From the NCBI RefSeq assembly GCF_045037415.1, contig NZ_CP173440.1: a stretch of DNA of 64,000 nt, one strand, 5' to 3'. This document shows, in pieces, positions 21,001 through 27,000 of the stretch. How positions within the stretch are numbered: position 1 is the stretch's first letter; every line of letters starts with the position of its first letter. Made by a program: the position numbers. Origin of the DNA: Escherichia coli. GTDB lineage: Bacteria > Pseudomonadota > Gammaproteobacteria > Enterobacterales > Enterobacteriaceae.

Positions 21001-24000
21001 CGTTGAGGATGAGCACCTGCAGCGGCCCCGCTTACCCGCCAGCGTTGAGGATGAGCACCGTCAGCAGCCCCGCTTACCCGCCAACGTTGAGGATAAGCAC
21101 CGTCAGCGCCCCCGTTTGCCCGCCAGCGTTGAGGATGAGCACCGGTAGCGGATCCGTTCACCCGCCAGCGTTGAGGATAAGCACCGTCAGCGGTCACGTT
21201 TACCCGCCAGCGTTGAGGATAAGCACCGTCAGCGGTCACGTTTACCCGCCAGCGTTGAGGATGAGCGCCGTCAGTGGATCCGTTTACCCGCCAGCGTTGA
21301 GGATAAGCACCGTCAGCGGTCACGTTTAACCGCCAGCGTTGAGGATGAGCGCCGTCAGTGGATCCGTTTACCCGCCAGCGTTGAGGATAAGCACCGTCAG
21401 CGGTCACGTTTAACCGCCAGCGTTGAGGATGAGCACCGGCAGCGGCCCTGTTTGCCCGCCAGCGTTGAGGATGAGCACCGGTAGCGGATCCGTTTACCCG
21501 CCAGCGTTGAGAATGATTCCCCTCCACCGACCCCGGTTACACGCCAGCTTTGACACTACCAGCGACTACAGTCGACATTAAAATCGCCGTGACCTGCTGC
21601 AGCGCGATATACGCCCGGCTGGCATCAAAAGAATTTTAACCAAACAGCACACATCCAGCGGTACAGGAGGCCAGGTTTAACCCGGGGCAGAAACAGATTG
21701 ATCTATAGCGACTTGTTAGGATCATTTAGCAAAAACCAATCCCGAAAGGCCTGCTTGCTATCGAAGGTGGGAAGGTTATGTATGGACAAGTTCCAGTTAA
21801 TGATTTTCACTATAAAAGACAAAAATTCAATTTCAGCCTCATTCAGTACACCCTCTCCTTTTTTCCGTATATAGAAGTCATACCATCGTTCGTAGGCGGC
21901 AACATTGATAGATTCAGATGCTTCCAGAAGCCGGGGGATATAATAAACCAGTTCTTCAAAGGCAATACTGCCTTGAGGGATATCAGAACGGCTCAGGCGA
22001 CAAAGAAGGTTAATCGTGGCTCGAAGGTGATGCCACTGCTGTGCCGGGGAGGATGGGAGGGCGTTCATGCTTATCGGAAGTTCATGAGGAATTAAAGCAA
22101 GGATCTGATTTCCACTGGTAGACAGCTCACGCCGGTACTGGTGTAGAGTATGGTGTTTAACCTTCTTCATCATAGGATGGTAGATCCATTTTTTCGCTTC
22201 CTCAGAAACGAAAAGTAACTTTTCTATCGCATCCATCATCTTTATGCCTTCTCCACTCTCACGATATGGAGCGATGATACTTTCAATCCGAACGGCATCG
22301 ATCTCCACCAGCGCCAGCTGGTCTGTTTGCGCTAACAGGTCTGGATTGGGCTGGATATCCTCCGACGTATCATTAATAAATATCCCGATTGTCGTATCGT
22401 TACATATCCCTGTGAGGTCAGCATTAAGGCCACAAACAATCCCACCACCAGCGAGATTTTTGAGGTTAACTATCCCTTTCTCCTTACCCTGCAGAAGATG
22501 AGGGAGAGCAAGGTATTTTTTTTCCTGTATTTTCACCTTTATGTATTTTTTTATATGTTGTAGTGTGAGCTCACTACAAACCCCTTTTACTTCTGTGCTG
22601 TGGCTAAAATGCCATTTTTTATTTTGACCCTGTTTGGCAATCAGGGAGGTCCCACAGATGAGGCAGATACAGTTACACGAAAGCCCATTTTCAACGCTGG
22701 CGATATCAACAATTTTATTTGAATCCGTATCAAATCCAAACGGGATCCATTTTTGTGCATTACGTCGCATGTATATTCCTCGTTAAAAATGAGTAAAGGA
22801 ATTCTACATCATCCGTTTTTATCAAACCTGGAATAACAGCGTCTAATTACATTATTCATATCTCATCGGGGATGAGATGCCACATGGAAGCAGGTATTTT
22901 GTCATAGTTTTTTTTCATGTAGATCTCAGCCCTGCGGTGATCATAAGCTCCGTTCAGGCTGGTTATCTTATTCATATCCCCACCTTCATCATTTAATTTA
23001 TCCAGGATACGCTCAAACACTCGGTCAAGGGTTTCAGTCGTACTGCACTTTCTGAACTTCAGGAGATAGGTTTCTCTCAGGCTACTGTGCGCATTTGGGC
23101 TTTTCAACAACGACGCTCCGGGGCATGTTCAAAAACACTGGCTATTTTCGAAAACAGTAAACGAAGTTCCACGCACAGGCAAGAGAAGCCATTTGATTAA
23201 TTCACGTTCTGCCTGGATTTGAAAAAAAACAATGTTACTATACTGGCTATAAAAACAGTGTGCGCCGGGGAACCGGTTAGAGATCAAGGGGTGAAAGTCC
23301 CCGACCATTGAAGGACCAGCAATCCACAAGGTCCCCGAGTCATGCGTTGCATACCGCGAGGTATGGGGCGAAGCGTTGACAGGGGTGTTGACAGGCCAGC
23401 CATTGAGCCACGAAATGTATATTAAATTACCGGGTGCCGACGTTGTACTGTTAACGGAAGGCAACATCATAGGGTGCGATACTGCGAGTGCCACATGGAC
23501 CCGGCGGGGTCTGAGACCCTGGCATGTCAATACGATCTCTACGCGGGAACCGGGAGATCTCCCCTCTGACCATCTGCCAGTGTCGGAGATGGCCCGCACC
23601 GGGAAGACGAGGAGTCATAGCCGGTGATGTACGGAGAGGAGAAGTCGGACTCGCTCATAGTAGCGGCGAAGCAGGCGAACAACCCGAAAGGAGCGGAGTC
23701 AGTGGAGCGAAGGAGCGGGGCCAAGGGGAACGCGGAACAGCCACACATGCGCCGGACACAGAGCCGGGAAAGCATGTCACAGAGGCTGTCACGCGTGCGG
23801 GAAGCTGCGAAGCAGCGGAAGAAAGAACGGTTTACAGCATTGTTCCACCTGCTGACAGTCGAAGCACTGGAAGCCGCATTCCTCTCCCTGAGCAGGAAAG
23901 CGGCCGCCGGAGTGGATGGCATCAGGTGGATGGACTACGCCGGAAACATGAAGAACAACATAACAGATCTGCACCGGAGGCTACATCAGGGCAGCTACAG

Positions 24001-27000
24001 GGCGCAGCCCGGCAGGCGTCACTACATCCCAAAAGCGGATGGAAAACAACGCCCGCTCGGCATCGCCTCGCTGGAGGACAAGATCGTCCAGTATGCGCTG
24101 GTGAAAATCCTGAACGCAGTCTATGAAAACGACTTTATGGGGTTCTCATACGGGTTCAGACCCGGGCGAAGCCAGCACGATGCACTGGACGCACTGGCCA
24201 CAGGGCTGGTACGCACTAACGTAAACTGGGTACTGGATGCCGACATCAGTCAGTTCTTCGACAGGGTGAGCCACGAATGGCTGATCAGGTTCACAGAGCA
24301 TCGGATCGGCGACCGGAGGGTAATCAGGCTCATACGTAAGTGGCTCACAGCCGGGACGTCGGAGGAGGGTCAATGGCGAGCAACGGAGGAAGGCACCCCA
24401 CAGGGTGCGGTCATCTCACCGCTGCTGGCAAACATATACCTCCACTACGTCTTCGATCTGTGGGCGCATCAGTGGCGACGTCGCTATGCCACAGGCAATG
24501 TGGTAATGGTCAGATACGCCGATGACATCGTCATCGGGTTCGACAAACGATACGATGCCCGGCGCTTCCGTATAGCCATGCAGCGCAAACTGAGGGAGTT
24601 CGGACTCACGGTTCACCCGGAGAAAACCCGTCTGATGGAGTTCGGCCGCTTCGCTGCCGAAAACCGTGCCATCAGGGGAAAAGGCAAACCAGAAACGTTC
24701 AACTTCCTCGGGTTCACGCACATCAGCGGGAAAGATCGCAACGGCAGGTTCATGCTGATACGAAAGACCCGCCGGGATCGGATGACGGCAACTCTGAAAG
24801 CCATCAAAGACGGTCTGCGAAGGCGCTGGCATTACTCAATCCCCGAACAGGGAAAATGGCTCAGGAGAGTGGTTCAGGGATACCTGAACTATCACTCGGT
24901 ACCGGGCAACTTCCCCACCATGCAGAAGTTCAGGACACACGTAACAAACCTCTGGCGCCGGGCGCTCAGGCGCAGGAGCCAGAAGGATGATACGACCTGG
25001 ACGAAAGCAAACAAACTGGCAGCCGCATGGCTACCAAGGGTTCGGGTTCTTCATCCATGGCCTGTGGAGCGGTTCACCGCCAGACACCCGAGGCAGGAGC
25101 CCGGTGCGTAAATCGCGCACGCCGGGATCTGTGCGGGGGGTATCCGGTAACGGGTATCCCTACCGCGACATCAGTGAAAAGACATGAGATCTTCCCATGA
25201 CAGATAAAACCAAACTGGTTGCTATCTCACGAACCGATGACATAAGTGCTCTGGATGCACTCAAGCTGTTGCGGTTTCGCCGGTACAATACGGCCAGAAG
25301 TCAGTTAAGGGTCACGAGTGTCTGGTCTGCATGGTGCGCCAGGCACGGTCTGACCCCCTTCCCGGTCACAGCGGTTGATGTCGAGCGCTATATTAATGGG
25401 CTGAATGGATCCGTTAAAATGGCGACTATCTCTCATTTTATTGCATGCCTTTCAAGCGTTAACAGCAGCCTGGGTTTTCCAGACTTCCGCAACGTTCTGA
25501 TAAAAGCACTGGTTCAGGTATGGCGGGCGCGGGAGAATGAGAAAAAAATCGTCACCGGTCAGGCCCTTCCATTTCTTATATCCGATCTCAATATTCTTCG
25601 CCGGTCGCTGCATAAAAGCGACGACCTGAGAGACATACGGGACCTTGCAATGATATGGGTTGGGTTTGAAACCCTGCTGCGTAACGTGGAAATTCGAAGG
25701 ATTAAAACCGGCGACCTGAAATGGCAAAATGACACGTCCTGTTACCTTCTGGATGTCATGCGGACCAAGACAAGCCTTTCAAGTAACCTGACATTTCAGC
25801 TCTCACCACAATGCAGTCAGCATGTCAGACGGTTGATTGAGACGGTGGAATACACCGATACCGAAACCTTCGGGCACCGTTTTCTTTTTCAGCCTGTAAA
25901 CATCCATACGAACCGATATTTCCCGTCCACCAGCAGTAAGCTATCCCGGGGTAAATCCATAGACAGGATGCTGGTCAAAGCAGGATTCAGTGAGGGGTTA
26001 CTGACGCAGTTACAGAATGAATCAAAGGTATCACGGGAAGATGTTGGAATGCTGTCCTCTAATTCACTGAACCAGGCATTTGCACGCCTCTGGGGGATTG
26101 CCGGGAAGGTCAGCGACAGTAACCGACAGTCCGGGCGGTACCGGACATGGACAGGACACAGTGTGCGTGTGGGGGGAGCCATAGAGCTGTTTAAGGCCGG
26201 GTACTCACTGGAAAAGATTACCGAGATGGGGAACTGGTCTGATCCAAAGATGGTCTTCCGTTATATCCGTGGATATCTTGCCAGTGAAAAAGCCATGGTA
26301 AGCTTTATGCGTAATCATCTGGACGACATATAGATTTTACTGAGAGAAACGCCAGCACTCAGCAACATGTTTCTGAGCGCTGGTCACTTATGAACTTTTC
26401 AGATATTCAGTTCTTTCAAATCTGTCACAACAAAATCCCCTTTTCCTGAAAGACTGTCAAAATCATCGAGTGTAAATTCATGGGTGTGATACCAAATGAC
26501 CCTGCATGTGGGGCAGGTAACAGGTAACAAATCTTCCGCTAACTTTTCGCTGTTATGGATAACCTCACCCATCTCGTTATGTTCGACAATATAACCACTT
26601 ATGCAAAGGGTTTCGTACCCATGAGCACCGGTAACAATATGGGTTGCTGTTCTCTCACGAATTTCCCCATTAATTTTAATCTGCTCTCGAGTGGTAATCG
26701 TTCTTTTATTATTCATGAAAACTCCGGATGATATTTAAAAACGGCTGACATTGCTCCCTGCTTCGGAATAATTGTGAAGGCAGCCAGGAAACCTGAAAAT
26801 ATGTTACCCTGTGCCTGAATCAGTTCTGGTGCGTCTCACGAATGAAAATGAGAGGCGATATCATGGATTATCCTTTTTGAGCAGCTTTTTCTTCTTTTCT
26901 TTGTTTTTTTAATCTCCGTTTTGCCCGGAAATTTGCAACGGTATAGAGAGTGACAGATGCAATGAAATTCACCAGTGCAGCAAACTCTACTGCCAGATTG

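Follow-up and report, generated by a model that had tools for sequence, protein, structure and literature searches.

A Kl.pn.I5 group II intron in the LexA operator of a plasmid recombinase gene, and the probable homing of its lineage to SOS boxes

The 64,000-nucleotide (nt) stretch of Escherichia coli DNA analyzed here (RefSeq assembly GCF_045037415.1, contig NZ_CP173440.1; hereafter the window) carries a copy of the group II intron Kl.pn.I5 that is inserted precisely in the LexA operator preceding the gene of a Cre-like tyrosine recombinase. We consider it very likely that homing into SOS boxes is general to the lineage to which this copy belongs; we infer that a use of the host gene's promoter and operator probably comes with it. 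The sequence-level evidence for such homing is strong. Base pairing with the exon-binding sites (EBS) of the intron takes up the right-hand two-thirds of the box, and as a consequence of this targeting its copies build up ahead of SOS genes, whether these are plasmid-borne, prophage-borne, or chromosomal.

Precise insertion in the operator of a recombinase gene

The boundaries of the intron (Table 1) are fixed by an intron-less allele. When the two flanks, 23010-23259 and 25170-25420, were joined and searched against a plasmid collection, they were found uninterrupted in 620 of 1,209 matching plasmid records, many at 100% identity, and perfect matches of this kind occur in many Klebsiella plasmids. 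Because this empty allele exists, the intron can be placed at exactly 23260-25169, without target duplication. The filled locus of the window is that of an IncFIB/IncHI1B Klebsiella-type plasmid, and two IncFIB/IncHI1B Klebsiella plasmids, one filled (L138) and one empty (L139), share an Hha gene, the recombinase, and a Tus-like gene; RefSeq assigns the recombinase to WP_004186933.1 in both filled and empty alleles. The initial annotation had rightly proposed a group II intron upstream of a tyrosine recombinase, but its extent of 23258-26333 needs correction at both ends, since the intron starts at 23260 and position 26333 is the end of the recombinase open reading frame (ORF). The spacing to the recombinase start codon, given there as about 12 bp, is 27 nt as measured from the intron end to the ATG, with intron and recombinase co-oriented.

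In the empty allele, the operator is contiguous and reads TACTGGCTATAAAAACAGTA. In the window, it reads TACTGGCTATAAAAACAGT/A (the slash marks the insertion point, here and below), which fits the TACTG-N10-CAGTA palindrome of the gammaproteobacterial LexA operator. Insertion has taken place between operator positions 19 and 20, leaving 19 of the 20 operator bases in place upstream of the intron. Homing after terminators or within mobile-element genes, which the initial annotation had noted for introns of this type, does not describe this site, a LexA operator in the promoter of the recombinase.

Table 1. Coordinates of the intron, its guide and target elements, and the adjoining recombinase gene (positions in the window)
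Feature	Position	Strand	Basis or remark
Putative -35 hexamer TTGAAA of recombinase promoter	23219-23224	+	Read from sequence; 16 nt upstream of TACTGG
LexA/SOS box, first 19 of 20 bp (TACTGGCTATAAAAACAGT); 5' exon recognition region	23241-23259	+	CTG-N10-CAG match
Intron-binding site 2 (IBS2)	23247-23253	+	Within LexA box
Intron-binding site 1 (IBS1)	23254-23259	+	Within LexA box
Group II intron Kl.pn.I5 (Se.ma.I1), complete, 1,910 nt	23260-25169	+	Empty allele; 135 junctions; 99.84% identity
Domain I-IV core	23294-23519	+	RF02005, 186.6 bits (gathering score 49), E 1e-54, full model 1-225
EBS2 (UGUAUAU), pairs with exon -13 to -7	23416-23422	+	Covariation in relative L060
EBS1 (ACUGUU), pairs with exon -6 to -1 (AACAGT)	23447-23452	+	Terminal hairpin loop in Rfam structure line
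Intron-encoded protein (IEP), 495 aa	23624-25111	+	TIGR04416, 373.8 bits, residues 81-451; RVT_1, residues 135-365
Domain V, 33 nt	25097-25129	+	Fold; AGC triad, AC bulge, G.A opposite triad G; 12 pairs
Domain VI, GNRA loop	25133-25166	+	Fold; 14 pairs, 4 with compensatory changes
20th bp of LexA box (A)	25170	+	First base of 3' exon
Cre-like tyrosine recombinase, 378 aa	25197-26333	+	Pfam Phage_integrase, residues 144-358

Target sites of other copies and pairing with the intron RNA

The first four other loci lie upstream of sbmC, a P1-type humD, a dinI-like gene, and umuDC, and at all four TACTG-N10-CAGT directly abuts the intron. A larger set of 135 5' junctions was assembled from four collections (E. 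coli genomes, one-genome-per-species contigs, IMG/VR viral contigs, and metagenomes) with a word or protein from inside the intron, a retrieval that leaves the flanks unbiased. The viral and metagenome scans supplied most of these junctions, and the one-genome-per-species scan, made with a 22-nt intron word, supplied 7 loci. The junctions represent 101 distinct 40-nt flanks and 67 contexts with unrelated -40 to -21 regions. Over these 67 contexts, the consensus from -20 to +2 is A TACTGTATATAWAWACAGT / AT, that is, TACTGTATATAWAWACAGT/A from -19 to +1, with CTG at -17 to -15 in 61-64 contexts and CAG at -4 to -2 in 65-66; +1 is occupied by a purine, A or G, at 39 of 40 sites. This consensus target, with the motif ATATAYAWACAGT, is the canonical gammaproteobacterial LexA box. 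Intron variants at 92% and 79% identity sit on LexA boxes as well.

Genes known to be SOS-regulated are among those downstream of these sites. Proteins encoded there include UmuD-like proteins (7 contexts, with umuDC neighbors occurring both on chromosomes and on plasmids), a 79-aa prophage family (9), DinI (3), the family of the window recombinase (3), SbmC (2), a cloacin (1), and an integrase (1); umuDC, sbmC, dinI, cloacin, and P1 humD are LexA-regulated genes. A co-oriented ORF starts no more than 50 nt away in about 30 of 39 contexts. The E. coli chromosomal insertions are at sbmC and umuDC, and those at sbmC, found in four strains from three countries, are independent events since the 3' exons differ just after the intron in the four strains.

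The intron reads this target through two guide segments, which can be identified as EBS2 and EBS1 because both change to match the exons of relatives. In L060, whose protein is 68% identical and whose unrelated site is ...ACATCTTGGAGAC/, the EBS1 place is taken by GUUUCC, complementary to its own -6 to -1 exon GGAGAC, and the EBS2 place by GAGAUGU, complementary to its own -13 to -7 exon ACATCTT; a Roseibium relative with 57% identity (L140) has CAUUGC opposite the exon (C)CAATG. Across 66 LexA-box contexts, between 9 and 13 of the 13 positions pair, with a median of 12 where control flanks have a median of 5, and EBS2 alone pairs at 5-7 of its 7 positions in all 66. In the window, 11 of the 13 are paired. 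Natural LexA boxes do not require TAT at -12 to -10, and its near-invariance in these sites fits the pairing with EBS2.

Several other modes of recognition were considered and rejected. The one segment with ACAG that might have served as RNA partner of the left half-site, UUGACAGG (23375-23395), is retained in relatives with unrelated targets and is for that reason taken to be structural rather than a guide. A delta-delta' type pairing of U23446 with +1 fails because L060 keeps the U though its own +1 is T, and recognition of the palindrome as a DNA hairpin, in the manner of IIC introns, is at odds with the covariation of EBS2 and with six sites that have no left arm. Asymmetry of pairing between the two strands of the box accounts only partially for the orientation of the intron, the observed strand being better in 23 of 38 cases, worse in 8, and equal in 7.

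Since the box is palindromic, its opposite strand still offers a matching target after insertion; none of these opposite-strand sites is occupied in L006, L010, L027, L030, L044, L059, L077, L079, L089, L106, L108, L124, or L130. One viral contig (L027:2638-7485) holds at least three head-to-tail intron copies after a single LexA box. Copies 1 and 2 differ at 6 positions, which makes an assembly duplication unlikely, and re-insertion at the occupied site, where -19 to -1 is intact and +1 becomes a G that is tolerated elsewhere, would explain the array. The window itself contains an unoccupied LexA-like box, TACTGTGTTTACATACAGT (9112-9130), that pairs with 11 of 13 EBS positions and is thus a potential target; an ISCR/IS91-family transposase ORF on the minus strand (7601-9094; NCBIfam ISCR clade Ia at 670.8 bits, short of the 925-bit cut-off) starts 18 nt downstream of this box.

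Structure, identity, and relatives of the intron

The element at 23260-25169 is an intact endonuclease-less bacterial group II intron. Its core is the sole Rfam family hit (group-II-D1D4-6) in the whole window. The 5' end, GTGCG at 23260-23264 (GUGCG in the RNA), fits the GUGYG consensus and is conserved in 130 of the 135 junctions; the 3' end is ...CGAC at 25169. The IEP, encoded within domain IV and annotated ltrA by RefSeq, passes TIGR04416, a curated model of group II intron reverse transcriptase (RT)/maturases with a cut-off of 300, and the closest solved structures are group II intron RTs. RVT_1 alone matched in the Pfam search, which returned neither an HNH or other endonuclease domain nor the Pfam maturase model. 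Only 44 residues follow the RT/maturase match, which fits the endonuclease-less ORF classes D/E/F, and the suggestion that the ORF lacks an endonuclease domain is thereby borne out.

The covariance models gave a divided answer. RF02005, for domains I-IV, matched well, whereas the Rfam Intron_gpII model of domains V and VI (RF00029) gave no match at E up to 10 in 22700-25500. For this reason, the 3' end was folded directly and its pairs were counted in an alignment of the window with three relatives that are 96%, 87%, and 80% identical over the last 110 nt. Both canonical domains fold and covary, as the initial annotation had asked of an intron. All 12 pairs of domain V, which also contains the last five sense codons and the stop of the IEP, are retained in the 4 sequences, with one U.G to C-G change. 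In domain VI, a distance of 7 nt separates the bulged branch-point A (25162) from the 3' splice site. Cells of the alignment are paired at 100% in the correct register for the two domains and at 29-48% when slid by 1-3 columns, and domains V and VI of this hand-built structure are thus supported by covariation. Domain V is unusual in being 33 nt long, in its pentaloop, and in what faces the G of its AGC triad, which is invariantly A (G.A) rather than the usual U (G.U). The same odd features are present in relatives down to 57% protein identity, and they may be why RF00029 misses the Kl.pn.I5 clade.

The intron itself is known and ordinary. It is 99.84% identical over 1,910 nt to copies in CP006658 p2 and CP023932, which a review of small Klebsiella plasmids names Se.ma.I1, also Kl.pn.I5 (PMC6764390), the name under which the same element stands in the Zimmerly group II intron database. 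The naming rule of that database is more than 95% nucleotide identity (PMC3552965, whose tables do not list Kl.pn.I5), and by this measure the window intron is Kl.pn.I5/Se.ma.I1. Near-identical copies are found at 5,616 places in 4,862 plasmid records (Klebsiella accounts for 4,303 of these records) and at 292 places in 234 of 5,426 complete E. coli genomes. In 2012, Leclercq and Cordaux reported that Kl.pn.I5 inserts between genes and that bases are conserved between -25 and +10 (PMC3522654); the words LexA and SOS do not occur in that paper, and the conserved flank was not recognized there as a LexA operator. Dispersed copies provide the homology through which plasmids fuse with chromosomes and inversions arise (PMC11022923, PMC9723571), and papers mentioning Kl.pn.I5 or its ltrA in Klebsiella treat the intron as a marker or recombination substrate. 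In the open-access literature searched, we found no link of any group II intron or ltrA to LexA or SOS boxes. Operator homing thus appears to be undescribed within that literature, and an earlier description could exist beyond what was searchable.

Among characterized introns, RmInt1 of Sinorhizobium meliloti (IIB3/class D) is similar in having an RT/maturase without an endonuclease domain, in reading its target by EBS1, EBS2, and one 3'-exon position, and in being highly site-specific and multi-copy on plasmids; replication-fork priming is presumed for it (PMC5894124). RmInt1 homes into an insertion sequence, however, and Kl.pn.I5 into a transcription-factor operator of many unrelated genes. 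The likeness is one of features, the only rhizobial relative retrieved being a disrupted S. meliloti IEP with 50% protein identity. IIC and IIC-attC introns (B.h.I1, S.ma.I2) resemble Kl.pn.I5 in being small ribozymes without an endonuclease domain that occupy a recurring palindromic non-coding motif (terminators, attC) at many loci. These introns have no EBS2 and recognize a DNA stem-loop together with short IBS1/IBS3 (PMC3522654, PMC3753933), whereas Kl.pn.I5 has a covarying EBS2, on which ground we do not class it as IIC in spite of its palindromic target, and some of its sites have no palindrome.

A third comparison is with elements under SOS control. In integron integrases with LexA boxes, lambdoid prophages, and SXT-type integrative and conjugative elements, mobility is tied to DNA damage via LexA or LexA-like repressors. 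Such elements carry their own operator or repressor, but Kl.pn.I5 has none and appears to borrow the operator and promoter of the host gene.

The surroundings of the insertion in the window have features of their own. The Cre-like recombinase occurs with three upstream contexts that differ from one another (window 23241-23260 and 25170-26333; L127; L116), and in each a good LexA box precedes it, which suggests an SOS-regulated plasmid recombinase, of which we know no description. An inverted repeat, CATGAGATCTTCCCATG (25183-25199), flagged by a terminator scan on the minus strand, spans the recombinase start codon, and its hairpin could sequester the ATG. Near the replicon and the recombinase lies a plasmid-borne gene for a Tus-like replication terminus-binding protein (27943-28902), which scores below the NCBIfam cut-off (74.5 bits against 323). 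At 20400-21516, a 42-bp unit is repeated in tandem 26.6 times with 87% matches; this stretch, which RefSeq ORFs cross, separates the RepB-type replication gene region from the Hha/recombinase region and is probably an iteron-like array of the IncHI1B replicon.

Proposed regulation, rival readings, and significance

The layout of the occupied sites suggests how the intron may be expressed. In 24 of 66 contexts, compared with 1-3 at shifted offsets, a TTGnnn element precedes the left half of the box by 16-18 nt, as in E. coli umuDC (TTGATC-17-TACTGT) and in the window (TTGAAA-16-TACTGG). In many sites, the left half of the box (TACTGT) would double as the -10 hexamer of a promoter aimed into the intron, and transcription would start about 7 nt before the 5' splice site, giving transcripts with IBS1 and without IBS2. 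Small IIE/IIF introns can self-splice without EBS2-IBS2 (PMC3753933), and a 7-nt 5' exon could therefore suffice. If this is how the intron is transcribed, then expression of intron and IEP is probably LexA-repressed and damage-inducible. Lying between the predicted SOS promoter/operator and the recombinase, the intron would be read through over 1.9 kb and then spliced from the recombinase mRNA, and umuDC, sbmC, and other genes elsewhere would likewise be expressed only after read-through and splicing. The suggestion of the initial annotation that the position of the intron may affect recombinase expression is a reasonable one in this light. To spread, the intron would reverse-splice into DNA under the guidance of its RNA and then be reverse-transcribed, for which, being endonuclease-less, it probably uses replication-fork primers, as is presumed for RmInt1.

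A fuller adaptive account goes beyond homing, and we hold it tentatively, at a little short of an even chance. The lineage may have evolved guides that read the SOS operator, such that DNA damage, and possibly the entry of conjugative DNA, switches on both its transcription and its mobility, with the IEP or bound LexA possibly reading the left half-site that the RNA does not. With about the same reservation, umuDC, sbmC, dinI, bacteriocin, prophage-induction, and plasmid recombinase genes would each have gained a splicing step.

The most serious alternative is a passive coincidence, in which the guides simply pair with a 13-nt AT-rich motif ending in ACAGT that is common in LexA boxes, without SOS coupling or selective advantage. 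We regard this as unlikely, perhaps one chance among several, and a number of observations favor it, weigh against the account we prefer, or do both. RNA pairing is confined to -13 to -1, the left half-site (-19 to -15) lies outside of it, and the CTG half-site is missing in 6 of 67 contexts. Conservation of the left half, at 81-96%, is no higher than expected for LexA boxes generally. Of the unoccupied independent matches to the 13-nt paired motif in about 1 Mb, 3 of 4 are themselves LexA boxes, and left-half conservation may then be a by-product of most natural motif matches being LexA boxes. Roughly one insertion in five runs antisense to the gene under regulation (relative to the nearest SOS gene, some 8 of 39 contexts, P1 humD among them), and from that position the intron cannot be spliced from the mRNA of that SOS gene. 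In the window, the promoter scan did not call the recombinase promoter, which is a weak match to consensus with a poor hexamer, TACTGG, as its -10 candidate, and SOS inducibility is a step that we infer from sequence. The silence of RF00029 also counts against our account.

Against mere coincidence, insertion leaves the operator and the overlapping promoter intact and pointing into the intron in most contexts, and the promoter scan found no plus-strand promoter-like site of the intron's own upstream of the IEP ORF. The lineage is also very successful on mobile elements rich in SOS boxes, as the 4,862 plasmid records attest, while relatives with other EBS sequences turned up only as single copies.

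It is far less probable that the window copy is an inactive fossil merely interrupting the recombinase promoter region. A few differences from the majority sequence might point that way, such as a first hairpin loop of GGAA instead of GAGA, but the variant loop is still GNRA, all catalytic elements are present, and the ORF is intact, with a protein 100% identical to many other copies. Copies that are 99-100% identical occupy dozens of different sites, and recent transposition is documented by a hospital outbreak study that recorded two new Kl.pn.I5 insertions (PMC8269217).

Two further readings are already refuted and retain next to no probability. That the RT belongs to a retron, a DRT, or another non-intron system, which the initial annotation had named as the result that would undo it, finds an echo in weak sub-threshold matches (22-62 bits against cut-offs of 200-600), but TIGR04416 passes and the ORF sits in a ribozyme with domains I-IV, V, and VI. 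That the LexA box is carried by the element, with the true 5' boundary about 20 nt further upstream, might be read from BLAST alignments between copies, which run about 20 nt upstream of GTGCG, but the empty allele already holds the complete box, its spacer and flanking bases vary between sites, and at sbmC and umuDC the box belongs to the upstream region of the gene itself, the joined exon flanks rebuilding a complete 20-bp box at each site. Intron-free E. coli K-12 has the same TACTGTATATAAAAACAGTA box at sbmC and umuDC.

The interest of these results lies in the lineage-wide targeting rule, the element in the window being unremarkable in itself. If SOS-box homing is real, then the operator of a global regulator is a new class of intron target beside terminators and attC sites, and the abundance of this intron on the SOS-box-rich plasmids and prophages of Klebsiella and E. 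coli would be explained. It would predict bursts of retrohoming inducible by antibiotics (quinolone, mitomycin), and the 13-nt pairing rule could help to forecast the SOS promoters that are liable to insertion. In many clinical strains, splicing of the intron would then modulate the genes for error-prone polymerase, bacteriocins, prophage induction, and plasmid recombinases.

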